A DNA stretch of 62,981 bases, counting the filler. It is 4 parts of 4 records of this genome, joined end to end, with 100 filler letters (N's around TTAATTAATTAA, not from the genome) between each part and the next. Parts side by side here need not be neighbours in the genome. Positions count along the whole stretch, not along the records: positions 1 to 28,076 come from SRR22947727_783; 3 more parts are not named here. The stretch is one strand, 5' to 3'. The stretch's first letter is position 1; each line of letters starts with the position of its first letter. Both the position numbers and the translations under genes were made by a program. This document shows, piece by piece, positions 279-53,782 of this stretch. Under the pieces are notes generated by a model that was not told the origin of the DNA, searched no databases, and saw only the letters and a program-made list of their open reading frames with translations.

Positions 279-1695
279 AATCTTTCTCTAATGCAAAAGC
301 TGCATTAAAAATTTCTTGCTCGTTATAATGTTTAGATAAAAGCTGAATTCCTAGAGGTAAACCATTTTTATCATTACCGTATGGAATTGAAATTCCAGGT
401 ATACCTGCAAGAGAAGCTGGTACTGTAAAAACATCATTTAAATACATTTTGATAGGATCATCCTGTTTCTCATTCAAAGGAAATGCAGCACTTGGAGCAG
501 TTGGAGTTAATATAAAATCACAATCTGAAAATACTTCAATAAAATCATTTGCTATTAACTTTCTTACTTTTTGCGCTTTTAAATAATAAGCATCATAATA
601 GCCTGCTGATAAAACATATGTTCCAATCAATATCCTTCTCTTTACTTCTTTTCCAAACCCCTCACTTCTAGTTAACTCATACATATCATCTAAGCTTTTT
701 GGATCTTTTGCTCTGTAACCATACTTAACACCGTCGTATCGGGCTAAGTTTGATGATGCTTCAGCTGGCGCAATTATATAGTAAGTAGGTAAAGCATATT
801 TAGTATGAGGTAATGATATTTGCTTTATTTTAGCACCTTTTTTTTCTAGAGATTTAATTGCATCATTCCAAACCTCATTAATTTCATCAGAAATGCCATC
901 AACTGTGTACTCTTTAGGTATTCCAACAACTTTTCCTTCCATATTAGAATCTAGATTTTTTGAAAAAGCTGGTATTGTCACATCAGAGCTTGTGCTATCT
1001 CTTTGATCATATCCTGCTATTTCTTCTAATAATATTGAGGCATCAGTTACATTTTTTGAAAAAACACCTGCTTGATCAAGACTGGATGCAAAGGCTGCAA
1101 TACCCCACCTAGAACATAAACCATATGTTGGTTTAATTCCTACAACTCCACAAAAACTTGCCGGTTGTCTTATTGACCCGCCTGTATCTGTTCCAGTAGC
1201 TCCTAAACATAAATCTGCAGCTACTGCAGCAGCTGATCCGCCTGATGAACCTCCTGGTGCCAATGGATTATTATCTTTTGATAGAGGGTTGATAGTATCT
1301 CCAAAATAACTTGTGTTAGTAGCGGATCCCATTGCAAATTCATCTAAATTTGTTTTACCAACAAAGATTGATCCTTGATTAAGTAGTTTTTGAGTAACAA
1401 AAGATTCATAAGTAGGTTTGAAATTTTCTAATATTTTTGATGCCGCTGTAGTAGGCATATTTTTTGTACAAAAAAGATCTTTAACAGCAATTGGAATACC
1501 TTTTAATATTTTATCATTGGATAAATTATCTATTTCTTTCACTTGATCATAAATTTTATCTTCATTAAAATAAATAAAAATATTTAAATCTTTTTTTTCA
1601 TTTATTTTTTTTATGTAGGTTTCAGCAATTTCTTTAATTGATATTTTGTTTTCATCTAATAAAGATTTTAATTGAGAGATTGATTTAAATTCCAC
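271..1695 (-). CDS. gatA: Glu-tRNA(Gln) amidotransferase subunit A
   Basis: Amidase signature [11 protein letters not shown]...[12 protein letters not shown]; between gatC and gatB. Confidence 0.97.
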
Positions 1696-1982
1696 TATTC
1701 TACTACCTTTGGTACAGCAAAATATCCTTCTAGTTTATCAGGGCTGTTTTGTAAAATTTCATCACTAGAATTAATATCTTTTGACTCATCATTTCTTTGG
1801 GGAAGAGTTGACGATGAGATATTCGCTAGTGGCTCAATTGAGTCTGTATTAACCTCGTTGAGTTGCTCCACCCAATCTAAAATTGAGTTCATATCTTTAA
1901 GCAAATCTTTAGCCTCATCATCAGATAGTTTAATTCTGGCAAGTTTTGCAATTTTATTTATTGTATTTGTGTCTAACTTCAA
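1695..1982 (-). CDS. gatC: Amidotransferase subunit C
   Basis: 95 aa, IAKLARI N-terminus, [10 protein letters not shown]-terminus; TTG start; upstream of gatA. Confidence 0.93.
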
Positions 1983-1987
1983 TTTAT

Positions 1988-2461
1988 ATGTCTCCAGTGA
2001 TTGAAAAAACTAATAATTTAATTGAGCGACTTCTTACATCACAAATTCTTGTAGGTCTAGATATAGGTTACAAAACAATTGGAATAGCCGTATCAGACAG
2101 ATCATTTACAATAGCCACACCATTCAATACAGTTTCCAGAAAAGGAACTAAAAAAGATTTACCAAAAATCAAGGAATTTTTAAATGAATATAAAATTGGA
2201 GGATTTATTCTTGGACTCCCCCTAAGTTTAGATGGTAATGAAAATGAGCAAACAAATAAGATAAGAAAATTTAGTAATGAATTACAATCATTTTTTTCAA
2301 TACCAATTGAATTTTGGGATGAAAGATATTCATCCGATATTATATTTAAGGAATTAAGAAAATCTGATTTTAGCTCTACAAAAATTAAAAAAAAATTAGA
2401 TCAACAATCAGCAGCTTATATTTTGCAAGGATATTTAGATAAGTATAGAAATACTCTATAA
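1988..2461 (+). CDS. ruvX: Holliday junction resolvase-like / pre-16S rRNA nuclease RuvX (YqgF)
   Basis: GLDIGYKTIGIAVSD, GLPLSLDG, WDERYSS, DQQSAAYILQ motifs; start moved to ATG 1988 to avoid overlap with gatC. Confidence 0.9.
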   Translation: MSPVIEKTNNLIERLLTSQILVGLDIGYKTIGIAVSDRSFTIATPFNTVSRKGTKKDLPKIKEFLNEYKIGGFILGLPLSLDGNENEQTNKIRKFSNELQSFFSIPIEFWDERYSSDIIFKELRKSDFSSTKIKKKLDQQSAAYILQGYLDKYRNTL

Positions 2462-2466
2462 ATTAG

Positions 2467-2496
2467 TTTACACATATTTACACAATTTTAACACAT
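2467..2496 (+). repeat. Three 10-bp-period direct repeats (TTTACACATA TTTACACAAT TTTAACACAT) abutting the pyrB ATG
   Basis: Read directly from the sequence; they fill almost the whole ruvX-pyrB spacer. Confidence 0.7.
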
Positions 2497-3639
2497 ATGA
2501 AATCAATATATCTAGAATCAGGCCATATTAAATTATACAAAAGAGAAAACTCTCAATATTGGCAAATGAAATTAAAATTACCAAAACAGAAAGCCATTCG
2601 TTCATCAACAGGTTCAAAAATATTAAATGAAGCAAAAAAAATAGCCTCAAAAAACTATTTATCATTTGGAATTAGTAACAAAATTAAAAAAACATCAAAA
2701 AATATATATAAAAAGATTCATCTAGTTGAAACTGCTGATTTAAATAAGAAGGAAATAGAATTCATTTTATTTGAAGCAAAAAAATTTATTAATTTTAATA
2801 AAAAAAGAGTAAAAAAAAGTAACCTACTAGAAGGAAGAATGATATTTAATTTATTTTTTGAAGACTCAACAAGAACACGTACAAGTTTTGAAGTAGCGGC
2901 TAAAAGATTAGGTGCGGATCTGATTAATGTTGCCGTAAAAGATAGCTCTATAAATAAAGGTGAAACACTCTTAGATACTATGACAACTATTAATTCAATG
3001 AATCCAGACGTTTTAATAGTAAGGCATCCAGAAGAAGGTATTAGTAAAAGGATTTCAAATAATGTAGATGCTTGCGTTATAAATGCAGGTGACGGAAGTC
3101 ATGAGCACCCTACTCAAGCCCTTTTAGATGCTCTAACTATAAAGAATAGATTTAATAATTTTTCAAAATTACAAATAGCTATTTGTGGTGATATTCTTCA
3201 TAGTCGAGTTGCAAGATCTAATATAATTATCTTATCTAAGCTAGGCGCTAAAGTAAATGTTATTGGCCCCAAACAATGGTTGCCAAAAAATATCAACAAA
3301 CTTCCTGTAGAAGTTCATACAGATATGAAAAAAGGTCTTAAAAATTGTGATATTGTAATGATGCTAAGAATTCAAAAAGAGAGAATTGTTGGAAAAATTA
3401 TGCCAAATCAAAAAACTTATTTTACTAAATATGGATTAGATTACAATAAACTTAAATATGCAAAAAAAAATGCTTTTGTGATGCATCCTGGCCCAATGAA
3501 CAGAGGGGTTGAAATAGACTCTAAATTAGCAGATGATATTACAAGAAGCTTGATTCAAGAACAAGTTGCAATGGGTGTTGCAATACGTATGGCTTGTTTA
3601 GATATACTAATTAAAAACAGAGATAATGTCCTTAGTTAA
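2497..3639 (+). CDS. pyrB: Aspartate carbamoyltransferase catalytic subunit with ~70-aa N-terminal extension resembling an integrase arm-type DNA-binding domain
   Basis: FFEDSTRTRTSFE, KGETLLDT, HEHPTQALLD, HSRVARSN, HPGPMNRGVEI motifs; ATCase core starts near HLVETADL (~aa 75). Confidence 0.95.
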   Translation: MKSIYLESGHIKLYKRENSQYWQMKLKLPKQKAIRSSTGSKILNEAKKIASKNYLSFGISNKIKKTSKNIYKKIHLVETADLNKKEIEFILFEAKKFINFNKKRVKKSNLLEGRMIFNLFFEDSTRTRTSFEVAAKRLGADLINVAVKDSSINKGETLLDTMTTINSMNPDVLIVRHPEEGISKRISNNVDACVINAGDGSHEHPTQALLDALTIKNRFNNFSKLQIAICGDILHSRVARSNIIILSKLGAKVNVIGPKQWLPKNINKLPVEVHTDMKKGLKNCDIVMMLRIQKERIVGKIMPNQKTYFTKYGLDYNKLKYAKKNAFVMHPGPMNRGVEIDSKLADDITRSLIQEQVAMGVAIRMACLDILIKNRDNVLS

Positions 3640-4228
3640 TAATTTTTTATTTATAACTATGTTCTATCTTATTGGGTCAATCCCTTTTGCATTAATACTT
3701 ACAAAGTTATTAGGGCATGGAGATATTAGAGATATTGGCTCAGGTAATGTGGGGGCAACAAACGTTCTTCGTACTGGAAATAAGCATTTGGCATTTGCAG
3801 TACTATGTTTGGATATTGCTAAAGGAATTCTACCTTTCCTTATATTAAAATTTTTTTATGATACTAATACTTTGCATTCAATATTTCTATGTCACTTTGC
3901 AATACTTGGTCATATTTTTCCTATTTGGTTAAAATTTAAAGGTGGCAAAGGTGTAGCTACGTATATTGGTTTCTTAATTGGTTTAAATTTCCTTATTGGA
4001 CTGTTTTTTTTATTAACTTGGATTATTGTTGCTTGGATTTCTAGATACTCATCGTTAAGCTCATTTGTAGCATCTTTAGTGGCTCCACTCTATTTTTTTT
4101 TCGTAAATCCGAATAATTTTGTTGGTATTTTTTTACTGTATTTATTTTTTATAATATCACTAAAACACCATGAAAATATAAAAAGATTAATAAATGGTTC
4201 AGAAAATAAAATAAAATTATCTAAGTAG
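3626..4228 (+). CDS. plsY: Glycerol-3-phosphate acyltransferase PlsY
   Basis: GSIPF, GSGNVGATNVLR, GHIFP, GGKGVAT, HHENIKRL motifs. Confidence 0.95.
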   Translation: MSLVNNFLFITMFYLIGSIPFALILTKLLGHGDIRDIGSGNVGATNVLRTGNKHLAFAVLCLDIAKGILPFLILKFFYDTNTLHSIFLCHFAILGHIFPIWLKFKGGKGVATYIGFLIGLNFLIGLFFLLTWIIVAWISRYSSLSSFVASLVAPLYFFFVNPNNFVGIFLLYLFFIISLKHHENIKRLINGSENKIKLSK

Positions 4229-41239: not shown

Positions 41240-41323
41240 ATTTAAACTTCAAAATTTACCTTTTAAAATCAAAGAACCAGCGCTCCCACTTCGCCTTTCA
41301 ACACCTCAAACCTAGAGATTTAT

Positions 41324-42829
41324 TCAAATCTCCGGAATTGGATCATTCGGTTTGATAACCTCGCCTTGCCAGGTCACGGTTCCGTCTTCATCCAAAGTCA
41401 GAATCCGGTGCGCGCTTTTCGGCGCGGGCTTCTTATTCACACTTGGGATGTGCTTCCGATGCTCCGCGATTACCGCGTCAAACGCCCCGCGATCATTTCC
41501 GGGAGCGATTAAATTCGTCCACTCGTTGGGATCTTTCACCATGTCGTAGAGCTCTTCCGAACCGTCTGCGTAAGTGATGTAACGCCATTTTTCCGACCGA
41601 ACTCCATGGTTGTCGTGATTGTGAGTCGTCACCGCAAAACGCTCTCGAGCTGCCGAAGCATCCTTCAACTGCGGCATCAGCGACAGCCCTTCCAAATCAT
41701 CACGCTTCGGTAATCTGCACAGATCAATCAGGGTCGGATACATATCCAAAAGCTCCGCAGGTCTTGCGCACATTTGGTTTGGCGTCACGCCAGGTCCGGC
41801 AAAAACCAGCGGGACTCGTGTTCCGTCGTCCCACAGTGTGTTTTTTCCAGTGATCGCTTTTTCGCCGATGTGCCAACCGTGGTCTGACCACAATACAATG
41901 ATCGTGTTATCCGCTTTGCCACTTGCCTCAAGCGCATCAAGCACCCGCTTCAGCTGGGCATCAACAAACGTCGTGCAGGCCAAATACGAACGCGTCAAAT
42001 TCATCCACTCATTCGAGTCTTCCAAAAACTTCAGGCGAGGCTCCGGCAACTTCCAGTGCGTATACCACGAAAAGCGCGGCGTATCATCGCGGTCCCCTCG
42101 CTGAATCAACGGCAGTTTTGTCTCGGATTCAGGATGCATATCAAACCACTTTTGGGTCGCGTAACACGGCACGTGCGGCAGAAAAAATCCGCACGCGAGG
42201 AAGAACGGTTTGTCCTCCGGCATATTTTCAAGCTGATCAACCGCCCACGAAGCGCATTTGTAATCGCCTTTATCCTCGTCTTTATGCGGAAACACTCCCC
42301 AGTCCACCAACCGATGTGGTTGCGGCGTATTCACCATTTTTTCCTTCGGAAACGGCTTCCCGCTCGCTCCAGGTCCAACAACATCCCACTCTTTGATTTT
42401 TGAACCGTTTCCTTTTGGTCCGACTTTTCCGATGCTCCGGCCGCTGGCTCCGTGATAAATTTTTCCAGTGTAAAAAGTGCGGTAGCCGTTCGCCATGAAA
42501 TGCTGCGGAAGCGACACCGCATCTTTCACTTCCTCGACATCACGAAAAAATGGAGCCAATCCGTAAATCCCCGTTGTCGAAGGGCGCTTGCTGATCATCA
42601 AACTCGAGCGCGATGAATTGCATAGCGGCGAATTGCAGTGCGCATTCGTGAAAGCAGTCCCGCGTTTTGCAAGGGCATCAATGTTCGGAGTCAGCGAATT
42701 TGGATGCCCGCCGAGATGGCCGATCCAATCATTCTGGTCATCAATCGCGATGAACAAAACATTTGGTTTATCCGCCGAAAAGAGCGCGGTTGAAACGAAG
42801 AGAGAAAAAAGAACAAAAAGCGTTTTCAC
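41324..42829 (-). CDS. Secreted sulfatase (iduronate-2-sulfatase/choline-sulfatase-like)
   Basis: Signal peptide, PNVLFIAIDD, CNSSR, GKIYH, PHVP, SDHGWH, ELYD. Confidence 0.9.
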   Translation of the reverse strand: MKTLFVLFSLFVSTALFSADKPNVLFIAIDDQNDWIGHLGGHPNSLTPNIDALAKRGTAFTNAHCNSPLCNSSRSSLMISKRPSTTGIYGLAPFFRDVEEVKDAVSLPQHFMANGYRTFYTGKIYHGASGRSIGKVGPKGNGSKIKEWDVVGPGASGKPFPKEKMVNTPQPHRLVDWGVFPHKDEDKGDYKCASWAVDQLENMPEDKPFFLACGFFLPHVPCYATQKWFDMHPESETKLPLIQRGDRDDTPRFSWYTHWKLPEPRLKFLEDSNEWMNLTRSYLACTTFVDAQLKRVLDALEASGKADNTIIVLWSDHGWHIGEKAITGKNTLWDDGTRVPLVFAGPGVTPNQMCARPAELLDMYPTLIDLCRLPKRDDLEGLSLMPQLKDASAARERFAVTTHNHDNHGVRSEKWRYITYADGSEELYDMVKDPNEWTNLIAPGNDRGAFDAVIAEHRKHIPSVNKKPAPKSAHRILTLDEDGTVTWQGEVIKPNDPIPEI

Positions 42830-43031
42830 GAGTCAATAGGGTATGTTTGGCGAACAGATAGGATTGCTTCGAAAAGACTTTTCGAAACAACAGGGCGATG
42901 AGCTGGCTTGCCAGCGATCTGAGGACAGCCGGGCAACGGTTCCGCAGGATAGCCCAGTTTCAAAAAAAGGTATGTTTGATTAACCAACAGTATTGGATCG
43001 TAATGCGGCTTGGCGAGTGCTTTAATCGGGC

Positions 43032-43778
43032 GTGATGAAGTGGTTTCTAATTTTTACAGCAGCAGCCCTAACGGTCTCTAATTTCGCCGGAGAAAATGAA
43101 ACGCCAACCGTGGCGACATTTTCGATCGTCGCCGTGGACAAATCCACTGGAGAAATTGGGGTGGCCGTTCAATCCAAGATCGTTGGCGTCGGTTCGATCG
43201 TTCCCTTTGCCGAAGCCGGTGTCGGTGCAGTGGCGACTCAGGCATACGCCAACGTTCGTTACGGCCCGATTGGATTGCTGATGCTGAAAACAGGAGCGAC
43301 GCCGGAACAAACTATCGACATGCTGACGAAGAACGACCCCGAAAAAGCACATCGCCAAGTCGGGATTGTTTCTGCTGGTGGAGAGGTCGCTACTTTTACC
43401 GGAGAGAAATGCAGCGATTGGGCGGGCGGAATTTCAGGAGATGGATTTGTTGTTCAGGGAAATATTTTGGCGGGCGAATCAGTCATAACAGCCATGGCCG
43501 AAGCATTCAAAAAAACTGAAGGGCTTCTCGCCGAACGTTTGATCGCAGCGCTCGAAGCGGGACAAGCTGAAGGTGGCGACAAACGCGGGCGGCAATCGGC
43601 TGCGCTCCTTGTGGTTCGGGAAGGCTGGGGATACGCGGGATTAAATGATCGCTTTCGAGATATCCGCGTCGACGAACACGAAACACCGATCAAAGAATTG
43701 CGCCGTGTTTATGAAAAGCACCGCGCGCTTTTCTCTCGTCCGAAGGCTGTGGTTGAGGAAGTTGAAGAAAAAGAATAA
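43032..43778 (+). CDS. DUF1028 family (Ntn-hydrolase-like) exported protein
   Basis: Signal peptide then TFSIVA, GAVATQA, QGNIL, GGDKRGRQSAAL, IRVDEH. Confidence 0.85.
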   Translation: MMKWFLIFTAAALTVSNFAGENETPTVATFSIVAVDKSTGEIGVAVQSKIVGVGSIVPFAEAGVGAVATQAYANVRYGPIGLLMLKTGATPEQTIDMLTKNDPEKAHRQVGIVSAGGEVATFTGEKCSDWAGGISGDGFVVQGNILAGESVITAMAEAFKKTEGLLAERLIAALEAGQAEGGDKRGRQSAALLVVREGWGYAGLNDRFRDIRVDEHETPIKELRRVYEKHRALFSRPKAVVEEVEEKE

Positions 43779-43790
43779 ACTCCTGCACCT

Positions 43791-45038
43791 ATGCTCGATT
43801 TTTCGGATGCCCCTTACCAGTTTTTTCCAGCGAAACCCAACCGGTTTATGATGGCGTTGGGGAAGTTTGCGAACCGCCGTTTCATTCTGAAAGGTAAGAA
43901 CCACCGGATCACTCAATTTGATTTGTGCGGTGAAATCGAAAAGGTGAGAGCGCTCCACAAATCAGGCGCACAGCTCGTCATCGTGGCGAACCATCCCACT
44001 CACAGCGACCCACAGGTCATGACGGAGGTTCACCGTCGACTCGGAATCAAATCGTGCTTCATGGCAGCCTACGACGTTTTTTTGCGAGGGAAATTTTCGG
44101 GATGGGTCATGCAAAATATCGGCTGTTTTTCAATTGATCGTGAAGGCAGCGATCGAAAGGCCATGGCGGAAGCCGCGCGGATTTTGAAGGCCGGCGAATT
44201 TGCGCTGACGATTTTTCCTGAAGGAAACGTCTATCTAGCGAACGATAAAGTGACTCCGTTTCTTGATGGTGCTTCCTTCTTGGCGCTGAAAGCTCAAAAA
44301 GACATCGGAGACGATCGACCAATTTATGTCGTCCCGATGGCCTTCAAATATTCGCACCTGACTGATGTGCGATCGAAAATCGGCGCACAACTTGATGACG
44401 TGGCTATTGGCCTCGGCACGAATTTTGATCACGACGCGGAACCGGTTTCAGAACTGAAACGCATTGGCCGCGAAGTGTTGATCAAAAATTTGAAGCAGCG
44501 GGGTTGCATCGATCCTGAAGATATCGCCGCGGAAAAACCGATGTCCGAACTGCTGGTTTCCGGTGCTGAAAAAATTCTCAGTGGCCTCGAATCGAAAATC
44601 GATTTACCTGACGGAGCCGGAAATGATCCCACCACTCGGATCCGAAAAATCCGCAGCGCGATTCATAATGTGCTGACCGACGATGATTTAGAGAACGATC
44701 ATCGCGTCGCCACGTCATGGGCGGACGAAGCAATTCTTGCCTTCCGGATTTTACAGTACGCGACGCCTTACGCTCTTGAAAAACCAACGGTGGATCGGAT
44801 TGCTGAAACCGTTGAACGTGTGCGCGAAGATCTGACGTCAAAATGGCAGGCGCCCACCGGCCCTCGTCACGTCGAGGTTCAAGTTCGCGAACCGATTCTG
44901 CTGGCCGACATTCTAAATGCGCACCCCAAGCTGAGAAATGCCGTCACGGAGCTCACTGGGCGGATGGAATCCGAAATTCAGGCTGGGCTCGATGAAGCCA
45001 ACGCCGGGCTCGAAACACCGGGCTCCGAGCTGTTTTAA
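43791..45038 (+). CDS. PlsC-like phospholipid/glycerol acyltransferase with long C-terminal extension
   Basis: NHPTHSD (HX4D), FSIDRE, IFPEG. Confidence 0.85.
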   Translation: MLDFSDAPYQFFPAKPNRFMMALGKFANRRFILKGKNHRITQFDLCGEIEKVRALHKSGAQLVIVANHPTHSDPQVMTEVHRRLGIKSCFMAAYDVFLRGKFSGWVMQNIGCFSIDREGSDRKAMAEAARILKAGEFALTIFPEGNVYLANDKVTPFLDGASFLALKAQKDIGDDRPIYVVPMAFKYSHLTDVRSKIGAQLDDVAIGLGTNFDHDAEPVSELKRIGREVLIKNLKQRGCIDPEDIAAEKPMSELLVSGAEKILSGLESKIDLPDGAGNDPTTRIRKIRSAIHNVLTDDDLENDHRVATSWADEAILAFRILQYATPYALEKPTVDRIAETVERVREDLTSKWQAPTGPRHVEVQVREPILLADILNAHPKLRNAVTELTGRMESEIQAGLDEANAGLETPGSELF

Positions 45039-46342
45039 TGACTGCTCCGGTCGCGAAAATCTCTCTGTTCACAGCAATCACGGTAGTTGTCGCGAATATG
45101 GTCGGCACGGGGATTTTTGGAAGCCTCGGGTTTCAAGTTCTCGGTTTGCCGAGCGGATTTCCAATTTTGCTTTTGTGGATCATCGGCGGTGTCCTCGCAT
45201 TTTGCGGAGCGGTTTGCTACGCTGAATTGGGTTCGATGATGCCACGATCCGGCGGCGAATATCATCTCCTGCGCGAAACCTATCACCCGCTGGTCGGATT
45301 TCTCGCCGGCTGGGTTTCTGTGACTATTGGATTTGCCGCGCCCATCGCATTGAACGCAAGTTTGCTCGGCGGCTACATGAGCCAAATAACGGAGTTCGAT
45401 TCGCGGCTTTTCTCCGTTCCGGTCGTCATCCTAGTCACAGCTATTCATCTCGCGAGTCTTTCAAAAATCAGCCGATTTCAAATCGTTCTAACGACCGCAA
45501 AAATCGTGCTGATTCTCGTTCTCGCCGCAGCTGCCTTTGTCATCGGAACTGCTCAGCCTGTTTCATTTCTTCCAAAAAGCGGAGATGGCGAATTGATTGC
45601 TTCCAGCGCTTTCGCGACGTCTCTCGTTTATGTTCTGTATGCTTACACTGGTTGGAATGCGGCGGTTTATATTGTTGGCGAGATGAAAGACCCGCAGCGA
45701 AATCTTCCACTCGCAATGCTGATCGGCGCGGGATTTGTCACCGTAATTTATGTGCTGTTGAACGCCGCATTTCTCTACGCCACGCCGATTTCAGAAATGG
45801 CCGGCGAAGCCGAAGTTGGGCTTGTTGCAGCGCGTTCGATTTTTGGCGATCGCGGCGGCATGTGGATGGGGGTTCTCATCAGTTTCGGATTAATCTCAAC
45901 GATCAGCTCGATGACATGGGCGGGGCCGCGCGCAACCGCGACCATCGGAGAGGACTACGGAGCGTTTTCCTTTTTCAAAAAACGGAACTCGAACGGAATT
46001 CCCGCGCGCGCCGTGTTGCTTCAGGGTGTGATCGTTTTGGTGCTGTTGCTGGTTTCCGATTTTGAATCGCTGATTCATTACACCCAAGCGGTTCTAACCA
46101 TTTCAGCAACGATGGTCGTCCTCGGTGTTATTTGGATGCGAATCAAAAAGCCAAATGCCACTCGAACTTATCGCGCGTGGGGCTATCCCGTAACGCCGCT
46201 GATTTTCATCGTGTTCAGCATTTACGTTTTGTTCTTCCAGATTCAAGAAAAACCAAAGGAGTTTTTCCTCGGATTGGGGACTTTGGCAATTGGAGCGGTC
46301 GTTTATTTTTTGGTGAGGCGTGGTAAATCTTCGAATTCTTGA
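45038..46342 (+). CDS. APC family amino acid permease
   Basis: NMVGTGIF, YAELGSMMPRSGGEY, YAYTGWN, ~12 TM. Confidence 0.9.
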   Translation: MTAPVAKISLFTAITVVVANMVGTGIFGSLGFQVLGLPSGFPILLLWIIGGVLAFCGAVCYAELGSMMPRSGGEYHLLRETYHPLVGFLAGWVSVTIGFAAPIALNASLLGGYMSQITEFDSRLFSVPVVILVTAIHLASLSKISRFQIVLTTAKIVLILVLAAAAFVIGTAQPVSFLPKSGDGELIASSAFATSLVYVLYAYTGWNAAVYIVGEMKDPQRNLPLAMLIGAGFVTVIYVLLNAAFLYATPISEMAGEAEVGLVAARSIFGDRGGMWMGVLISFGLISTISSMTWAGPRATATIGEDYGAFSFFKKRNSNGIPARAVLLQGVIVLVLLLVSDFESLIHYTQAVLTISATMVVLGVIWMRIKKPNATRTYRAWGYPVTPLIFIVFSIYVLFFQIQEKPKEFFLGLGTLAIGAVVYFLVRRGKSSNS

Positions 46343-46417
46343 TTCCCATTTCCAATTTCTTGAACGGGAATTTAAAAGAGTTTTTCGGAATTAATGGGAA
46401 ATTCGAAAAGCACAAAT

Positions 46418-47815
46418 TTATAGAAACGGATCGCCTTTTTCTTTCCGCCACTCATCCAATTGCTTTTCTAAATTAGCCCGTCGCTCCGCGTGCGCGGGAT
46501 CGTCCGCGAGATTTTTCAACTCGAACCGATCAGCATTGAGGTCAAAAAGCTGCCAGTGATCGATCTTGGGATAACGAATCAATTTCCATCCGTCGGCGGA
46601 ACGAATCATGCGCTGCGTATCGGTGAAGTAGCCAAAGGTCGTTTCGTTGTGCTCTGATTTTTCACCGTGCAAAACGGGAGCAAAACTTTTCGCAGTGACG
46701 GTTGCTGGAATTTTTGCACCCGCAATTTCGCAAGTCGTGGGGTACAAATCGCGAAGATAAATCTGCGCATCGGTTTTTGAGCCAGCTTCAATTCCCGGCC
46801 CGGCAGCAATGAACGGGACGTTGATGGTGTGCTCGTATTGATTCTGCTTCCCGCGCAATCCGTGACTTCCGCAAGCCATTCCATGATCAGCGGTGAAAAC
46901 GATGAGCGTGTTCTCGAGCTGTTCCGTTTTTTCTAACATCGCAATAATTCGACCAATCTGCGCATCCATATCGTCGATGACGGAATAATAAACGCGGAGC
47001 AAATCACGAACCGCTTCTTCAGTTCGCGGCCAACTCATCAACGCTTCGTCGCGGCCGCCGTAGTTGCCGTGATTAAACGGATGATCAGGCGCATAATCTT
47101 TTGGCAGCGGGATTTCGGCGGTTTTGTATTTTCCCTCCAAGCCCGGCGGAACAAAAAGCGGATCGTGCGGCGCGGTGAAATTCACGTGACAAAACCACGG
47201 CTTCTCCGGCTTCCGCTCTATCAATGAAATCGCTGCGTTGGCAAATTTCTCGCTGATATCCGGAGTGACACCGACGCCTTCTTCGGGATATTTTATTTTG
47301 CCAGTCGCGTCTTGGAAAATCCAACCGCGGTAGCCTGTGATCGGAAAATTCTTCCAATCGCGCTGGCCTTCCTTCCAAAATTTCGAACCACCTCCTGAAA
47401 AAAGTCCCGCGACATCCGTGGAACCTCGCGTCGTTGGGCGACCTGCAGTGTGCCATTTTCCGACATACCACGTTTCGTAACCTGCGGTTTGCAACGCGTC
47501 ACCCCAACAAATGAGATCAGGCTTAATCTTCACCCCGCGTATTCCGGTGATGCCATTTTCCCAGCCGTGCATGCCCGTCAGAATTTCGGCGCGGCTGACC
47601 ACGCAAATCGGATTCGAACACGTCGCGCGAGTGAACGTCATTCCGCGAGCGACGAGCTTATCGAGATTAGGCGTTTCAATCGCGGGATTTCCCAATGCAG
47701 CAATGCAATCCGGCCGCATGTCATCTGCGAGGAGAAATAAGATGTTCGGCGGGTTCTCAGCACGACACGGAAGCAGAGTGAGAAAAAACAGGACAGGCAA
47801 AATTCGAAAGCACAT
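46418..47815 (-). CDS. Secreted sulfatase
   Basis: PNILFLLADD, CVVSRAEILTG, GKWH, APHDP, ADHG, GKQNQYE. Confidence 0.9.
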   Translation of the reverse strand: MCFRILPVLFFLTLLPCRAENPPNILFLLADDMRPDCIAALGNPAIETPNLDKLVARGMTFTRATCSNPICVVSRAEILTGMHGWENGITGIRGVKIKPDLICWGDALQTAGYETWYVGKWHTAGRPTTRGSTDVAGLFSGGGSKFWKEGQRDWKNFPITGYRGWIFQDATGKIKYPEEGVGVTPDISEKFANAAISLIERKPEKPWFCHVNFTAPHDPLFVPPGLEGKYKTAEIPLPKDYAPDHPFNHGNYGGRDEALMSWPRTEEAVRDLLRVYYSVIDDMDAQIGRIIAMLEKTEQLENTLIVFTADHGMACGSHGLRGKQNQYEHTINVPFIAAGPGIEAGSKTDAQIYLRDLYPTTCEIAGAKIPATVTAKSFAPVLHGEKSEHNETTFGYFTDTQRMIRSADGWKLIRYPKIDHWQLFDLNADRFELKNLADDPAHAERRANLEKQLDEWRKEKGDPFL

Positions 47816-47912
47816 TTGCCAGACTAGGCAGAATTCCCCTTCGATTTACAGATCAAACCTCCCACGTCTTCGTCATTGCATTTCAGCTCAAAATTCGTCA
47901 GGTTTCCTCTTC

Positions 47913-48974
47913 ATGAAAAAACTCTTCACATTGTTCACCCTTCTCGTGTGTTCGATCGCATCGGCCGATCATCATGCGGGGAAAGTTTTGAAGCTCGCCG
48001 GAAAAGAAGGTCCCGGAAAAGGGAAGAAAATCGTTCTCGTCGCGGGGGATGAGGAGTATCGCTCCGAAGAGTCAATGCCGATGCTGGGCAAGATTCTCTC
48101 ACAAAAACATGGTTTCGACTGTGTTGTGGTTTTCTCGTGGGACAAATCTGGCAAATATATCGATCCAAATAATCAGGAAGGCCTCATCGGACTCTCCGAA
48201 CTCGACGACGCGGATTTGATGATCATCGGAACGCGTTTCCGCAAGCCAAACGACAAAGAGGCGGCACACCTCACGACCTTTATGAATGCTGGAAAACCAG
48301 TGATTGGAATTCGCACAGCGACTCACGCTTTCAACGGAGGTCAAAAATTTGGCGACTCTGAAACGGCGATCGGGTTTGGTCAGTGGGGCCGCAAAGTTCT
48401 CGGTGAGCAATGGGTGAGCCATCACGGACGCCACAAGGTTCAAGGCGCTCGCAGCGTTGTTGAAGCTGACAACACAACAAACAACATCCTTCGCGGAGTT
48501 GGTGAAATTTTTGCTCCATCGGACGTTTATGGTGTGAAGCACCTGACTGAAGAGGACACTATTTTGCTTCGCGCAACGGTTACTGAAACGCTTGAGCCGG
48601 ATTCAGCCGATATCGAAGGCGAGAAGAACAATCCTGCACAAGCTTTTGCCTGGCTGCACGAATACACCGGTCCGAATGGTACCGCGAAAGGCATGTCGTT
48701 CTGCACAACTGGCGGAGCTTCGGTTGATTTGATCGATCCAGATTTGCGGCGTCTTCTTGTCAACGCAGCGTATTCGCTGACCGGCCTCGAAGTTCAGGAA
48801 GAAGCCGATGTTGATTACGTCGATCCGTTTTACCCGAGCTTTTACGGTTTTATTAAAGATGCCGCTTGGTGGAAAGATCTCGATTTGCAGACCGAAGAAT
48901 TTGGTCTCGGACAATCCACAAATCTCCCCGATCCAAAAGGTAGCCCCGAGTGGAATCACGAAGACAATCCGTAA
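47913..48974 (+). CDS. Exported ThuA-like domain protein
   Basis: Signal peptide MKKLFTLF..., IVLVAGDEEYRSEESMPML, GIRTATHAF; true start ATG 47913. Confidence 0.75.
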   Translation: MKKLFTLFTLLVCSIASADHHAGKVLKLAGKEGPGKGKKIVLVAGDEEYRSEESMPMLGKILSQKHGFDCVVVFSWDKSGKYIDPNNQEGLIGLSELDDADLMIIGTRFRKPNDKEAAHLTTFMNAGKPVIGIRTATHAFNGGQKFGDSETAIGFGQWGRKVLGEQWVSHHGRHKVQGARSVVEADNTTNNILRGVGEIFAPSDVYGVKHLTEEDTILLRATVTETLEPDSADIEGEKNNPAQAFAWLHEYTGPNGTAKGMSFCTTGGASVDLIDPDLRRLLVNAAYSLTGLEVQEEADVDYVDPFYPSFYGFIKDAAWWKDLDLQTEEFGLGQSTNLPDPKGSPEWNHEDNP

Positions 48975-49043
48975 TTTTCGACTTTAACGAACAGACAGGG
49001 CTTGTTCGACGAACCAACCCTATTGAATCGTGAAACGTGACTT

Positions 49044-49175
49044 TTATTTTTTACCGGCTAACGCCAACACACCGCTGATGATCAAAAAGATAGCGACTAC
49101 CAAAGCCAGCAACGAAGGCTTTATAAGGATTAAAACGCCGGCAACGATGGAGATGAGTGGAGATATGTTTTTCAT
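49044..49175 (-). CDS. Small membrane protein, DUF3096-like (43 aa; absent from ORF track)
   Basis: Manual translation MKNISPLISIVAGVLILIKPSLLALVVAIFLIISGVLALAGKK, two TM helices around a central Pro. Confidence 0.7.
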   Translation of the reverse strand: MKNISPLISIVAGVLILIKPSLLALVVAIFLIISGVLALAGKK

Positions 49176-49258
49176 GACTTCTGTCCGTAAAGCACCTGTG
49201 ACGAAAAAAAACAGGAAAACCGAAGGGCGTTACCGGGTTTTAACTGTTTCCCATTCTT

Positions 49259-50500
49259 ATGCCTTCATTTGCCTACACTGCGATCGACAACACCGGAACT
49301 AAAGTTTCGGGGAGCCTATCGGTGCGGAATAAATCGGAGGCTTACCGCGAATTGGAATCAAAGTCGCTGACGCCGGTTCAAGTTAAGGAGACGGACGAAA
49401 GTGCGGCGGCAAAGGCAAAAGCGAAAGGTTCAGGACTGGCGATCGGAGTGCCGGTTAAACTGAAAAGGCCGCAAATGATCCTTTTCACGGAGGAGTTAGC
49501 CGACCTTCTCGATGCCGGACTGCAGCTGGAACAGGCGCTGCGGGTGCTTTCAGAAAGACAGCAGGACAAGGCTTTGAAAACGGTTGCGGCGACTTTGCGT
49601 GAGGAAATTCGCGAGGGCACCAATTTTTCCACCGCTTTGAAAAAAGCATCCCCATCGTTCGATGATTTGTATCGAAATCTTGTAGCGGCCGGCGAAGCCA
49701 GTGGTGCGTTACCCGAGATTTTGCGGCGTTTGGCAGGAAATCAAAAGCAGATGTATGATTTGCATCGCCGAACGGTCAGCGCGATGATTTATCCGGCGAT
49801 TCTAATTCTCGGCTGTATTGTGTTGCTGTTCGTTTTCAGCACGGTTTTGATGCCGCAGCTGACCAAATTGATTAAAAAAACCGGCGGCGGCGAGCTACCA
49901 TTGATTTCGGAATTGTTGATCAAGTTTTCGAATTTCATGAATAGCTGGTGGTGGCTGGTTTTGACTATCGGCATCGCGATTTTCATTCTATTCAAGGCCT
50001 TCATCCGCACGCCAAAGGGCCATTTTTGGTGGGACAATGCGAAGATGAAAATCCCTGCCTTTGGCCCGGTGGTGGCCGGACGGTTCTACGCTCAGTTTTG
50101 CCACACGATGTCAATTTTGGTGAACAACGGCGTTCCTCTTCTGAATGGTCTCAAACTTGTGACGCGCGGAACGACCAATATTTTTGTGAAGAAGCACCTC
50201 GAAAAAGCGGTCGCTGATGTGGGAGATGGAATTTCGCTGGCGCGGACGATGGATGAGTCAGGGACGTTTCCGCCTCAGTTAGTCGACCGGGTCGCGATCG
50301 GCGAACAGACGGGTGAACTTGGGAAAGCGTTCTCAAAAGCAGCCACGAAATACGATGAAGACCTCGATGTGAGGATTGGCCGCTTAACCAGTCTAATACC
50401 GATGGTGGTTTTGATTGCAATGGCGGTTGTGGTTGGCGTTGTAGCATTTGCGATCATCAACACGATTTTTGGCTCGATGTCGGGTATTGGCAGAAAGTGA
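49259..50500 (+). CDS. gspF: Type II secretion inner-membrane platform protein
   Basis: MPSFAYTAID, LADLLDAGL, AGEASGAL, MIYP, GEQTGEL. Confidence 0.92.
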   Translation: MPSFAYTAIDNTGTKVSGSLSVRNKSEAYRELESKSLTPVQVKETDESAAAKAKAKGSGLAIGVPVKLKRPQMILFTEELADLLDAGLQLEQALRVLSERQQDKALKTVAATLREEIREGTNFSTALKKASPSFDDLYRNLVAAGEASGALPEILRRLAGNQKQMYDLHRRTVSAMIYPAILILGCIVLLFVFSTVLMPQLTKLIKKTGGGELPLISELLIKFSNFMNSWWWLVLTIGIAIFILFKAFIRTPKGHFWWDNAKMKIPAFGPVVAGRFYAQFCHTMSILVNNGVPLLNGLKLVTRGTTNIFVKKHLEKAVADVGDGISLARTMDESGTFPPQLVDRVAIGEQTGELGKAFSKAATKYDEDLDVRIGRLTSLIPMVVLIAMAVVVGVVAFAIINTIFGSMSGIGRK

Positions 50501-50594
50501 AAGAACCGCAACTTTTACCCGTAAACGGGGTTGGATCATCGAACCCATACGATCATGGCGTTGAATCGTAACTGTTTTTAGGCATACTCTTAAA

Positions 50595-51035
50595 ATGAAG
50601 ATCACCATTCAGAATCTTAAAAGAACACGCACGGGAGCATTTTCGCTGGTGGAAATGGTCATCGTGATCACGATTATTGGCATTCTCGCAGCTGCAACGG
50701 TAGTCGGAGTGGGCGGATTCGTTGATGATGCTCGAATGAGCGCTGCTGAACTTGGAATTGAACAACTGGGAACCGCGCTTCTCAGCTATGAAGGCCAGAA
50801 TTACTCACGCCCGCCCACGCAAGAACAGGGGTTGATGGCACTTCATGAAAAGCCGACTTCGGAACCGATGCCGAAACGCTGGCGCGCCTATGTCGAAGAA
50901 AAGGAACAACTTCTCGATCCATGGGGAAACGAATTTCAATATCGGATGCCTTCGCAAAAAAGTAAGAAGCGCTACGATGTGTTTTCACTCGGAAAAGACG
51001 GTGTCGAAAGCGATGACGACATCGGCAACTGGTGA
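50595..51035 (+). CDS. gspG: Type II secretion major pseudopilin
   Basis: AFSLVEMVIV, PTQEQGL.AL, DPWGN, SLGKDG..DDIGNW. Confidence 0.92.
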   Translation: MKITIQNLKRTRTGAFSLVEMVIVITIIGILAAATVVGVGGFVDDARMSAAELGIEQLGTALLSYEGQNYSRPPTQEQGLMALHEKPTSEPMPKRWRAYVEEKEQLLDPWGNEFQYRMPSQKSKKRYDVFSLGKDGVESDDDIGNW

Positions 51036-51691
51036 TGAAAATTCAGCGTCATCACCGCAGGCGTGAATTTGGGTTCTCGCTTGTTGAAATCGTCGTCGCA
51101 CTTGCGATTGTCGGGGTGATGATTGCGATTTCGGTGCCTTCGATTGACTCGATCCGAAAAGAAAAATTGGCGCGAGAGCCGGTTACAGCGCTCGCGAAAA
51201 TGGTTCGCGAAACCCGCAAGCGAGCCATGTCTGAGGGGCGACCGTATCAGATCGCGTTTGATAGCCGCGGGTTTCACACGGCCCGCTTTTTCTCGCCGTA
51301 TGGAAAAAGCGAAGAGTTTGATCAACTCCAACGAGATTTGGAAGTGATCGCTCAGGAACAGGAAATCATCGAAGCATCACGTGCTCGGGGAATTGATTTG
51401 AATGCCGGCGCAGGACCTACCGAAGCCCAGCAGCAGATGGACGTGGCGCGCGAGGGGATGACGTATTTTGAAAAAGTAGAACTGCCCGACACCTATTCTT
51501 ACAAACTCCGTTTTTACGGCGATACCGACTGGGTCGATATGACAACGGGCGAGTTTAAACGCTGGGTATTTCAGCCATCCGGGATGCTTGATCCGATGCA
51601 AATTCAGGTTCAATCAGACAATGCTTTTTTCGAAGTGGAATTTCATCCGCTGACTGGCGATGTAAAATCCGAAAGCGGCTGGGTGGAATAA
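51032..51691 (+). CDS. gspH: Minor pseudopilin GspH-like
   Basis: GFSLVEIVV prepilin motif; position after gspG. Confidence 0.7.
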   Translation: MMKIQRHHRRREFGFSLVEIVVALAIVGVMIAISVPSIDSIRKEKLAREPVTALAKMVRETRKRAMSEGRPYQIAFDSRGFHTARFFSPYGKSEEFDQLQRDLEVIAQEQEIIEASRARGIDLNAGAGPTEAQQQMDVAREGMTYFEKVELPDTYSYKLRFYGDTDWVDMTTGEFKRWVFQPSGMLDPMQIQVQSDNAFFEVEFHPLTGDVKSESGWVE

Positions 51692-51715
51692 TTTAAGAAG
51701 TCACGAAACAAATTC

Positions 51716-52123
51716 ATGAGATTGAAACCGACAAAAACCCGAAGACGACGAGGCTACGCATTGCTTGATGTAATTCTCGCGGTTTCGGTTTTTGCACTTG
51801 TCGGAACGGGAGTAATTCGCTCGCTTCATCAAATTCAGGAAGCATCCACTTTTGGTCGGTTTGATCGACTAGTGCAATATGGACTGGAGTCGGCCCTGAC
51901 TGAAGCCAAATACAAACCCGTTCGCGAAATGCAGAGCGAGATTTTTGACGAAGCACTGGGAGTCACTTACACGACAGCCGTTGAGCAGTTGGATGTAGCA
52001 ACTGGAGATGGCAACGCCCTTCGTGACCTTTATAAACTGACGGCTACGGCGACTTTCTCCGATAGCTCCGGGCAGCAGGAAGAAGTCGCCGAGATTTACG
52101 TTTATCAGCCGGAGCAAAAATGA
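51716..52123 (+). CDS. gspI: Minor pseudopilin GspI-like
   Basis: RRRGYALLDVILAV variant prepilin motif; size and order. Confidence 0.62.
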   Translation: MRLKPTKTRRRRGYALLDVILAVSVFALVGTGVIRSLHQIQEASTFGRFDRLVQYGLESALTEAKYKPVREMQSEIFDEALGVTYTTAVEQLDVATGDGNALRDLYKLTATATFSDSSGQQEEVAEIYVYQPEQK

Positions 52124-53160
52124 CGATTCAGCCCGCGATGCAACATTCAAAAACCACAACGAATTCAAGGAAAATCAGCGCTTTCACGCTGCTGGAAGTT
52201 GTCGTGGCCATGGCAATTCTCGGAGTGCTGGCGAGTTCGGTGTTTGCCATTTTATTTCAAGTAGGCATGACTGCTGGAGAAATCCGCGAAGTCGATCAGC
52301 GGGATGAGGAAGTGTCTCGTTTTATCGCGCTGCTGCGGGATACCATCGAACAAATGCCGCAAGAAGGCCGGATCGAAATTGTTCCGCCTACGGGCACAGA
52401 GTCTGAGTTTTACGAAATCAAAATTGTCGGAGCAACCACGGCCTTTTCATTTGGTGAACGCGGCGTTGGCGAGGGCGACACCACGATTGGAATGCGTCCT
52501 CAACCGATTGATTCGATTCGCCCCGATCTTCCGCTCGACGACGGGCAGCAGTTTTTCCAGGTCGCCATCAGTCGTGAGGATTTTGGCCCTCAGGATGAAG
52601 ACGGCGATGGCATGGTTTTCAATGCAGGCGGAGGCGATGACGGATTTCTCGTTGCTGATGAACAGGGTCGTTACTGGCTCCCAATCTTGGATTACGTCAC
52701 TGCCGTTTCGTTTCGATTTTGGGATGAAGACGCAAAAGATTGGGTGATTGAATGGGAGGACGCTGAGTTGATGCCGCCGCTTTTGGAATTGGCAATCACC
52801 GATCCGTATCGCCCTCTCCCCTTACGCACCGTTTTCGATGTGCCCGATCATTTAACGAAAGAGGCCGTCGAACAAGCTGCGGCAACGACTTCAACCGCAA
52901 ATAGTACGACCACCTCAGCGACGAGGCCACAAGATGGGGGCGGAGGCCGCGGGTCACAAGGCGGCGGTGATCGACGTGGCGGAGATAGGCGGGGTGAAGG
53001 TGGAAAAGGTGGTGACGGCGGCCGCGGAGGTGGCGATCGCGGAGGAAGAGGTGGCGATGGTGGCCCACAGCCTGGGTTTCGCCCACAGCCCGGCGGAGGA
53101 GGAAGACCCACAGGAGGTGGAGATGCCGCACCGACTGGTGGTGGCGGAGGAGGCCGATAG
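52120..53160 (+). CDS. gspJ: Minor pseudopilin GspJ-like with Gly/Arg-rich tail
   Basis: AFTLLEVVVAM prepilin motif; FRFWD..W..EW..PPL C-terminal pattern. Confidence 0.7.
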   Translation: MTIQPAMQHSKTTTNSRKISAFTLLEVVVAMAILGVLASSVFAILFQVGMTAGEIREVDQRDEEVSRFIALLRDTIEQMPQEGRIEIVPPTGTESEFYEIKIVGATTAFSFGERGVGEGDTTIGMRPQPIDSIRPDLPLDDGQQFFQVAISREDFGPQDEDGDGMVFNAGGGDDGFLVADEQGRYWLPILDYVTAVSFRFWDEDAKDWVIEWEDAELMPPLLELAITDPYRPLPLRTVFDVPDHLTKEAVEQAAATTSTANSTTTSATRPQDGGGGRGSQGGGDRRGGDRRGEGGKGGDGGRGGGDRGGRGGDGGPQPGFRPQPGGGGRPTGGGDAAPTGGGGGGR

Positions 53161-53184
53161 AGTTCTCTATTTTACAAAACCGAT

Positions 53185-53682
53185 TTGAAACTGCATTTAC
53201 ATTCCAAAAAACGACAAAACCAGCGTGGCATTGCCCTGTTGCTTGTTCTTGCCGTGATTGCGATTCTCGGAATCATCATCGTTGGATTGTGGGAGGTTTC
53301 CGAATACTCACAGGACGATCGCTCCAAAGAAAAATTTAAATTTCAGGCCAAACAACTCGCCGAATCCGGCGGAGCCATTGCCATGCACCCCGATGTCCCT
53401 CCGGGTGATCCTGTTCTGCGAAAAGACTTCGGTGATGGGCGTTCTTACAGCGTCCGCATCACTACGGAAGGCGGCCGCATCCGAATCAATTCAATCCACG
53501 ATGAAATCATTCGTGCGACCGTCTTGGAGCTTTTTATCCGCTGGGGTGTCGATGCATCAGCTGCTGCCATTGCCACAGATTCGCTCGCAGATTGGATTGA
53601 TACCGACAGCGAACCGAGCCCAAATGGAGCGGAGAAGGTTTTCTACACCAGTCTCGAATACCCCCAATATCCACTGAATCGC
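53185..53682 (+). CDS. gspK: Pseudopilin GspK (3' truncated)
   Basis: QRGIALLLVL, EGGRIRIN, LADWIDTD. Confidence 0.82.
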
Positions 53683-53782
53683 NNNNNNNNNNNNNNNNNN
53701 NNNNNNNNNNNNNNNNNNNNNNNNNNTTAATTAATTAANNNNNNNNNNNNNNNNNNNNNNNNNNNNNNNNNNNNNNNNNNNN
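53683..53782. other. Artificial contig linker
   Basis: N-run with TTAATTAATTAA; GC drops afterwards. Confidence 0.98.

Follow-up and report, generated by a model that had tools for sequence, protein, structure and literature searches.

The subject of this analysis is pyrB, the gene encoding aspartate carbamoyltransferase (ATCase), in a stretch of DNA of 62,981 nucleotides (nt), in the following termed the window, and in particular an N-terminal extension of the PyrB protein resembling the arm-binding (AB) domain of tyrosine integrases and a set of short direct repeats placed immediately in front of the pyrB start codon. The open reading frame at 2497-3639 on the plus strand starts with ATG and encodes a protein of 380 amino acids (aa). 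Its catalytic part is covered by PF02729 (OTCace_N) over residues 75-216 (144 bits, Pfam cut-off 29.9) and by PF00185 (OTCace) over residues 224-369 (80.3 bits, cut-off 29.4), and the NCBIfam ATCase equivalog PRK00856/NF002032 matches residues 75-371 with 403.6 bits (cut-off 263). STRTR and HEHPTQ are readable in the translation, which we take to represent the carbamoyl-phosphate motif (S-T-R-T-R) and the H-P-T-Q motif of ATCases, respectively. In-frame ATG, GTG or TTG triplets are present at codons 1, 24 and 115 only, and the nearest upstream in-frame stop lies at 2464, 33 nt 5' of codon 1. An earlier note on this DNA had described a PyrB of 380 aa with intact catalytic motifs, a core starting at about residue 75 and no start codon between Met24 and the core, and this description holds throughout. 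The extension (residues 1-74) contains 19 Lys/Arg versus 3 Asp/Glu. No match to PF00589 or to a SAM-like domain was obtained in the 380-aa protein, thus the recombinase catalytic domain, which would carry the R-K-H-R-H pentad and the Tyr nucleophile, is not present and, judged by its sequence, PyrB appears to have retained the N-terminal domain alone from an integrase. In database records the fused protein is merely labeled 'aspartate carbamoyltransferase catalytic subunit'. As named from the translations, gatB/gatA/gatC on the opposite strand are followed by a ruvX-like gene, pyrB, a plsY-like gene and topA.

The 35-nt spacer between ruvX and pyrB holds three direct repeats of TTACACA type, i.e., TTTACACAT (2467-2475), TTTACACAA (2477-2485) and TTAACACAT (2488-2496), in the arrangement TTTACACAT-A-TTTACACAA-TT-TTAACACAT with the ATG following at once. 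The ACACA cores begin at 2470, 2480 and 2491 and are thereby 10 and 11 bp apart. Even if two mismatches are allowed, this triple pattern is found once in the 63-kb window, compared to 0.04 occurrences expected. It is present exactly once in each of the genomes G062, G063 and G064, always at the pyrB leader, and the two-repeat pattern is likewise restricted to this leader. The fused genome G065 (locus L020) has no exact triple repeat because its third unit is a GCACA variant, and none was found in the unfused complete genome G178. Among 78 distinct leaders the core positions of the repeats are conserved to 94-99%, compared to 54-62% for the three spacer positions and a mean of 81% for the third codon positions of the module, and the repeats are kept in the most divergent members of the clade (L088, L094, L102-L104). 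The features of the locus are collected in Table 1.

Table 1. Features of the pyrB locus with their positions in the window, and ratios of nonsynonymous to synonymous substitution rates (dN/dS) for codon ranges of pyrB. AF2, AlphaFold2; pLDDT, predicted local distance difference test.
Feature	Position or codons	Strand	Basis or value
ruvX/YqgF-like Holliday-junction resolvase	1946-2461	+	named by reading the translation; ends 35 nt before the pyrB ATG
Three direct repeats, candidate arm-type sites or operator	2467-2496	+	conservation, uniqueness, same heptamer at int genes
PyrB residues 1-57, integrase arm-binding-like domain	2497-2667	+	homology, AF2 fold, dN/dS
PyrB residues 58-74, lysine-rich variable linker; helix end, then low-confidence segment	2668-2718	+	pLDDT 60-68, dN/dS 0.28
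PyrB residues 75-380 and stop codon, canonical ATCase catalytic chain	2719-3639	+	Pfam, NCBIfam, dN/dS 0.06
plsY-like gene, overlapping the pyrB 3' end	3626-4228	+	named by reading the translation; synteny common to fused and unfused relatives
Domain, upstream of Met24	codons 2-23		dN/dS 0.117 (34 disjoint pairs pooled)
Domain	codons 24-57		dN/dS 0.150 (34 disjoint pairs pooled)
Linker	codons 58-74		dN/dS 0.279 (34 disjoint pairs pooled)
ATCase core	codons 75-380		dN/dS 0.063 (34 disjoint pairs pooled)

The fusion is not a peculiarity of the window. A word-indexed search with residues 1-74 yielded 610 proteins at E<=1 among 634 candidates, and the best 120 of these 610 matches, originating from NCBI, JGI, ENA, Tara and Logan, are all 380-381 aa long, carry both OTCace domains and show 92-100% identity in the extension. 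In contigs from a collection with one genome per species, 129 stretches encode relatives, of which 80 were kept; 76 of these 80 genome loci align from residue 1-6 to past residue 375 and the remaining four end at contig edges. The distribution was analyzed in the order to which G062, the genome containing locus L017, belongs, i.e., in 187 genomes of AT-rich marine Alphaproteobacteria of 0.9-1.6 Mb, many of which are incomplete so that 'not found' does not equal absent. Of these genomes, 87 gave a match to the extension and 134 one to the ATCase core. The cores form two groups, one of 89 genomes being 62-98% identical to the core of the window and one of 45 genomes being 44-54% identical. An uninterrupted frame of 384-406 aa, i.e., a fused protein, is present in 82 of the 89 close-core genomes, five further ones end at contig edges (G165, G077, G152, G122, G089), and the remaining two are G155 with a frameshift in the linker and G176 without the module. 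The 45 distant-core genomes encode frames of 295-327 aa and are unfused. Among the fused proteins, the length of the linker differs by one to three residues. In four fused genomes the module is confined to pyrB, and the two recombinase loci with PF00589 in each of them do not carry it. A module search in genomes of 2-11 Mb, whose resemblance to the window is confined to its GC-rich part, returned chance matches only (best E 0.05).

The unfused loci L108, L109 and L111 show the same order of gatC/gatA, ruvX-pyrB and, where the locus extends that far, plsY-topA; in these, ruvX overlaps the start of pyrB and PyrB has a length of about 302-304 aa. In L107 the N-terminal tail of PyrB comprises 15 residues only. 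The fused clade carries about 260 bp in addition, consisting of the 35-nt spacer and 222 nt of coding sequence. Given the overlap of ruvX and pyrB and the same neighborhood in the unfused relatives, the cassette is therefore an insertion. The fusion is real, widespread and old, and it is not an artefact. Two genomes depart from this picture. G176 (L208, G176:C34 at about 1600-1660, minus strand; core 79% identical) has lost the AB-like domain along with the repeats of the spacer and the larger part of the linker; its PyrB begins directly behind ruvX with about 10 residues ahead of the core, and these residues still resemble the end of the linker, which looks like a secondary natural deletion of the whole cassette. 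In the single-cell genome G155 (L210, G155:C7 at about 700-760; also L079) a frameshift in the A-rich linker yields a module frame of 81 aa and a core frame of 321 aa, which could be a sequencing error or a real disruption. A second 'module' in G177 was rejected as it sits in an unrelated frame of 196 aa. Five proteins (P0129, P0147, P0122, P0133, P0127), in which the module continues in frame into a MazG C-terminus, a DALR domain or an unrelated tail, were not taken as evidence for mobility: every one of them was seen a single time, on a contig of 647-2286 bp, and they are probably assembly chimeras at highly conserved sequence.

Selection was analyzed in 79 distinct full-length coding sequences (window and loci), with duplicates, incomplete and N-containing sequences being excluded. 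In all-pairs Nei-Gojobori comparisons, a simple counting method applied here to an AT-rich genome and to pairs related to one another, dN/dS was 0.11-0.16 for residues 1-57, 0.20-0.66 for the linker, with 0.66 being reached at high divergence, and 0.04-0.07 for the core. The pooled values (Table 1) reveal constraint at the protein level also for codons 2-23 and thereby speak for a translation start at codon 1. Contigs from RNA libraries (four libraries from four studies; 90-99% identity to the window) bridge ruvX, spacer and module at 2289-2654 and 2186-2658 and span the transition from module to core at 2536-2894 and 2618-2768, without indels in any bridging contig. These contigs are consistent with transcription of pyrB and with its co-transcription with ruvX. 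Promoter and terminator scans of 2200-2800 returned sites no more numerous than in shuffled sequences, and the leader lacks a purine-rich ribosome-binding site and has no G between the repeats. Separately, very high summed contig depths were observed in single RNA-library runs at 2748-2855 and 3288-3395 (X4 about 2200-2660; X10 about 130-240); these peaks in the ATCase core probably derive from short contigs of other organisms or from low-complexity A-rich sequence. Much of what the earlier note had put up for checking on the extension is borne out by these data: its translation by the dN/dS of 0.117 upstream of Met24, its maintenance by purifying selection (0.12-0.15), the occurrence of the fusion beyond the contig of the window by the 82 intact frames in 89 genomes, and the soundness of the junction by RNA-library contigs crossing it without indels and by the same junction in many independent sources. 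Altogether, it is very probable that the extension is translated and functional.

The similarity of the extension to integrases is supported by several lines of sequence comparison. A phmmer search with the extension against 1.84 billion representatives resulted in 37 matches at E<=1e-3, mostly truncated PyrB N-termini, and included four N-terminal fragments of non-PyrB proteins (P0152, P0153, P0154 and P0157; E 3e-5 to 7e-4). Three further matches, P0142 with FG-GAP repeats and the long proteins P0155 and P0156, were spurious according to a Pfam check. Comparison of P0157 with longer proteins gave 14 matches, including proteins of 385-420 aa with PF00589 or SAM-like core-binding domains, and two of the P0157 relatives carry the name 'integrase' from their source. 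A Pfam scan of these related integrases located the core-binding domain at residues 76-174, approximately, and the beginning of the catalytic domain near residue 211. For one of them, 87-90% of the length can be aligned to phage and satellite integrases with annotation, at about 25% identity. Residues 3-57 of the PyrB extension align to integrase residues 8-61, i.e., to the part preceding the core-binding domain. By pairwise BLASTP the extension is 44% identical over 55 aa to an integrase of 413 aa (E 3e-12), and a second integrase alignment shows 38% identity over 60 aa. Thus, the integrase-like pattern to which the earlier note had pointed, and whose quoted peptide is present as written, reflects real homology. 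Across 22 PyrB modules and the four integrase fragments there is no variation at Y14, R16, S19, W22 and Q23 and hardly any at R35, G39, A46 and Y54. Moreover, a scan of viral contigs identified an integrase of 355 aa (PF00589, E 1e-28), of which residues 11-55 match the module profile with an hhalign probability of 93% (E 2.8e-7); a gene of the HTH_17 excisionase type lies directly upstream of it. No phased repeats were found near the integrase of viral contig L128.

Family databases returned little for this domain. PHROGs gave no family for residues 1-74 and NCBIfam a chance match only (E 0.09), AB families of Pfam clan CL0081 were not reported for the related integrases at E<=0.1, sequence searches of the PDB with the single sequence and with a profile returned nothing meaningful (best E 0.4, a ribosomal protein), and tblastn of the module against 50,697 phage records gave no match. 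The N-terminal domain of the closest integrases forms an unannotated family of marine integrases. The sequence comparisons argue strongly that the extension descends from the N-terminal AB domain of a family of tyrosine integrases targeting tRNA-Met, a descent we regard as highly likely.

The AF2 prediction for the extension, based on an alignment of 26 sequences, has a mean pLDDT of 87, with 94-97 over residues 1-50 and 60-68 in the linker; a single-sequence run of the whole protein resulted in a pLDDT of 36 and was unusable. The model predicts strands at residues 2-6, 11-15, 23-26 and 34-37 and a helix at residues 43-63. In a comparison with 48,161 representative chains by VIA-align, 3jtz_A, the arm-type binding domain of the HPI integrase, was found at rank 2 (Z 5.7, root-mean-square deviation (rmsd) 2.9 over 58 residues). 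If the top 1000 chains of Foldseek are aligned by VIA-align, 3rmp_C (Z 5.8), 3jtz (Z 5.7) and 3ju0, the arm domain of the HAI7 integrase (Z 5.0), are placed at ranks 2, 3 and 10, with alignments of 58-59 residues each at an rmsd of 2.7-2.9. In a study on integrases, AB domains are described as sequence-variable modules of three strands plus a helix that bind arm sites, and the DUF4102-type AB domain of the IntSXT/P4 group is reported to have an extra strand (PMC8138268).

The leader repeats recur beside genes of the closest integrases. In a comparison of 79 metagenome loci of P0160-type integrases (L129-L207), the P0160 subgroup has its int gene adjoining a tRNA-Met gene (anticodon CAT) or a copy of its 3' part; the presence of the 3' part only, seen at some int loci, is as expected for an att copy. 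At L131 and L134 (1282-1500) and their relatives the order is tRNA-Met(CAT), a terminator-like hairpin, two TTACACAC repeats and int. The two TTACACAC direct repeats are 11 bp apart, about 63 nt past the end of the tRNA and about 70 nt before the ATG of int. Both copies are exact in 13 of 17 distinct upstream sequences of the subgroup, one copy carries a single mismatch in three, and one sequence diverges upstream, whereas the bases flanking the repeats vary among the loci. L198 (at about 1440) has nothing in common with the other loci upstream of position -62, the very point at which the TTACACAC repeats would end, and this break could be a recombination junction or a chimeric contig. Two TACACA motifs 9-12 nt apart were obtained in 5 of 200,000 mononucleotide shuffles of one 220-nt region. 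The P0160 loci are closely related and therefore count as one evolutionary observation.

These findings suggest a domesticated integrase arm domain together with its cognate arm sites, which probably enables the trimeric ATCase to bind its own leader; for this reading as a whole we see an even balance of chances. In the simplest history, an element carrying an AB-type integrase and arm sites of TTACACA type was located between ruvX and pyrB, and a deletion reaching from within int to the start of pyrB probably fused the AB domain in frame, after which the cassette was kept by selection. The AB domain might have been captured together with, or beside, the TTACACA-type repeats of its integrase family, and the repeats would then have been remodeled to three copies abutting the ATG. 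The gain of the cassette of about 260 bp, consisting of repeats, AB domain and linker, would go back to the common ancestor of a single clade of marine Alphaproteobacteria with streamlined genomes. Since the catalytic chains of ATCase form trimers, the enzyme would carry three AB domains on flexible basic linkers of 17 residues, and these three domains might bind to the three repeats, whose helical phasing places them on the same side of the DNA. The bound enzyme would cover its own start codon and the junction of pyrB with ruvX, or it would stop RNA polymerase arriving from ruvX, resulting in lower expression of pyrB, i.e., in a one-component negative feedback on ATCase. As the AB domain and its likely cognate repeats were kept together through the history of the clade while the repeats were remodeled, self-binding is regarded as the most likely function, and we would put binding of the leader repeats by the AB domain at even prospects. 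Autoregulation of pyrB is proposed more tentatively and falls somewhat below that, and any dependence on a ligand would be hypothetical. The role as regulator or trigger enzyme put forward in the earlier note gains support from the phased TTACACA repeats at the start codon, which that note does not mention and which match repeats next to the related int genes; what the sequences show of such a role are its architecture and the operator-like repeats. PyrI was not found above the family cut-off in any of the four genomes searched, so that these cells would profit from an additional level of control. The full proposal, an ATCase that exapted an integrase AB domain and cognate arm-site repeats and thereby became an autoregulatory circuit of a single gene, its three heads resting on three phased sites, in streamlined ocean bacteria with few conventional regulators, may hold, although we lean slightly against it in its entirety.

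A number of observations weigh against a domain that binds its own leader. Residues 1-74 match no Pfam family, arm-domain families included, even at E<=10, and hhalign against three DUF4102 (Arm-DNA-bind_3) sequences aligns equivalent strands but weakly (probability 5.7%, E 0.0067); hence the extension is termed an AB-like N-terminal domain of an integrase and is not placed under a named Pfam AB family. Foldseek returned no match in the PDB at E<=1e-3, with 3rmp_C, the arm domain of a P4-like integrase, at rank 21 (E >0.7), and the top match of VIA-align is the unrelated inhibitory subunit of a methane monooxygenase (Z 6.2). The Z scores are middling, below 8, and values of this size are common. 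The structural check suggested in the earlier note has thus a mixed outcome, with modest matches in VIA-align (Z 5.0-5.8), none at E<=1e-3 in Foldseek and a weak one in the DUF4102 profile comparison; the structural match carries weight because it agrees with the independent sequence evidence. At the int loci the repeats are two, not three, and lie about 70 nt from the ATG instead of abutting it. Furthermore, in a sister subgroup of integrases with a similar N-terminal domain (P0166 type), a TACACA pair is missing from all eight distinct upstream regions. Five of the eight have ACACAG-containing repeats in a similar position, and GTAGCGCAC is present twice, 11 bp apart, near the att end and AACACAGTGTTTG twice, 27 bp apart; as the repeat sequences differ between subgroups with similar N-terminal domains, the inference is tempered. 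No further triple or double repeat is present in G062, G063, G064 and G065, and therefore the sites found in the genomes searched do not form a regulon. The N-termini of one trimer would need to reach three sites spanning about 70 Angstrom, and the A/C-rich, G-free leader could be a translation or promoter element instead. The RNA evidence consists of contigs, which are silent on start and strand and in which carry-over of DNA is possible. Finally, G176 keeps pyrB without repeats or domain, showing that the module is dispensable for catalysis.

Some of these observations would also fit a domain that is functional without binding the leader DNA, acting by protein-protein contacts or allostery (as a substitute for PyrI, in higher oligomers or by nucleotide binding), with the ACACA repeats being an independent promoter or an element of initiation without Shine-Dalgarno sequence. 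We rate this as rather unlikely but as an explanation to be taken seriously: purifying selection proves a function, not its kind, the four genomes searched gave no PyrI above the family cut-off, the leader has neither a purine-rich ribosome-binding site nor a G between its repeats, many beta-alpha proteins that do not bind DNA match the same fold class, and other ATCases have N-terminal extensions with regulatory roles. It does not account, however, for the coincidence that the heptamer recurs with its 11-bp spacing next to the int genes of the closest relatives, and the invariance or near invariance of the residues shared with integrases (Y14, R16, S19, W22, Q23, R35, G39) is expected if the ancestral DNA-recognition surface was retained. 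Autoregulation might also act on the RNA level, with the domain binding the ACACAU repeats in the ruvX-pyrB transcript and blocking initiation at the adjacent AUG. Phage P2 offers a precedent with the post-transcriptional self-control of its integrase via RNA of the att region; the RNA-library contigs running from ruvX through the leader into pyrB fit a co-transcription that puts the repeats into the mRNA, the last repeat abuts the start codon, and dsRNA-binding and ribosome-binding beta-alpha domains are among the structural neighbors. Nevertheless this is improbable, as a phasing of 10-11 nt is a property of the DNA helix without obvious meaning in unstructured RNA and arm-binding domains are known as binders of double-stranded DNA (PMC8138268).

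The two remaining explanations assign no role to the extension. A neutral fossil, i.e., the 5' end of an integrase left by a deletion and kept merely as source of the pyrB start codon, with a functionless peptide, had been set beside a domesticated module in the earlier note. It would be in line with the insertion between ruvX and pyrB shown by synteny, with the G176 lineage having deleted the cassette and kept pyrB, and with the fast evolution of the linker (dN/dS up to 0.66 at high divergence). Yet codons 2-57 have a dN/dS of 0.12-0.15, 82/89 genomes keep an open frame although stop codons come up readily at a GC content of about 30%, the invariant residues are those common to integrases, and the non-coding repeats are conserved above third codon positions; a decaying fossil is thus very improbable and, of the two possibilities, the clade-wide domesticated module is the one supported. 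Even less credible is a mis-called start or an assembly error. The ATT at codon 74 (2716), directly before the ATCase core, is the sole conceivable non-canonical start there, and the single-cell genome G155/L079 has its frameshift in the linker. This explanation is opposed by the lack of ATG, GTG and TTG between codons 24 and 115, by protein-level selection on codons 2-23 and by the recurrence of the junction in single-cell genomes, metagenome-assembled genomes, metagenomes of many sources and, without indels, RNA contigs.

Apart from the pyrB locus, which is untouched by it, the G+C content of the window changes from about 0.30 to about 0.50 and back at 41300-54000. Genes in this region differ in character from the others and encode two sulfatases, a DUF1028 protein, an acyltransferase, an amino-acid permease, the type II secretion system (T2SS) protein F, pseudopilins and T2SS K; the region is either a sizeable island of foreign origin or the result of chimeric or concatenated assembly. 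That the 6-Mb genome G001 has 24% of the window's words is probably due to this GC-rich stretch. Rfam and tRNA scans of the window gave no match.

A domesticated arm domain acting on its own leader would, if true, be the first integrase arm domain known to act outside recombination and would make PyrB the first DNA-binding ATCase. To our knowledge, integrase arm domains are known solely as parts of recombinases, and ATCase is a textbook model of enzyme regulation. In the full-text literature searched, which did not include most subscription journals, neither an ATCase with a DNA-binding or integrase-derived N-terminal domain nor an AB domain domesticated outside recombinases was reported, in agreement with the earlier note, to which no fusion of an arm domain with ATCase was known. 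What is found here is a natural, clade-wide fusion of ATCase and an arm domain with matching DNA repeats. If the mechanism holds, debris of a mobile element would have been rebuilt into a minimal device for gene control, pyrimidine synthesis would be controlled by it in abundant, streamlined marine bacteria without PyrI or a dedicated regulator, and a domain of about 57 aa with its 10-bp site would provide a compact pair of protein and DNA, the specificity of which can be compared against related integrases.

Among known systems, the AB domain of the P4-like/IntSXT group of integrases (HPI, HAI7; 3JTZ, 3RMP, 3JU0; Arm-DNA-bind_3/DUF4102) is likewise N-terminal in homologous integrases and has short direct repeats adjoining its gene, as at pyrB. 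Its four-stranded sheet followed by a helix, the 'extra strand' variant of the group, is also predicted for the PyrB extension (PMC8138268). In contrast to this domain, the PyrB extension has no Pfam match and a weak match to the DUF4102 profile, it precedes ATCase instead of a core-binding or catalytic domain, and its nearest relatives in sequence are the unannotated N-terminal domain family of tRNA-Met integrases and not the P4-like AB domain. The N-terminal domain of lambda Int is a small beta-sheet-plus-helix module on a flexible linker, which binds direct repeats of about 10 bp that are one helical turn apart (P'1-P'3). Three adjacent direct repeats are thereby present both in the lambda arm and in the pyrB leader; the lambda arm sites organize a recombination complex, whereas at pyrB no recombinase is encoded and the sites overlap the start of a metabolic gene. 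Canonical PyrB shares the full-length equivalog core (residues 75-380) and the ruvX-pyrB-plsY-topA neighborhood, and the unfused orthologues of the same order, with about 302-304 aa and overlapping ruvX, have no leader, repeats or N-terminal domain. Trigger enzymes and bifunctional enzyme-regulators such as PutA, BirA and NadR, and PyrR for pyrimidine genes, combine a metabolic enzyme with a nucleic-acid-binding module controlling a gene of its own pathway, as is proposed for PyrB. They use ribbon-helix-helix, helix-turn-helix or RNA binding; none of them is known to use an integrase arm domain or to be an ATCase, and the candidate sites that PyrB would bind are present at its own gene only in the genomes searched. 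The case adds to two known kinds, trigger enzymes and domains of mobile elements that became domesticated, and its comparative support is unusually coherent.

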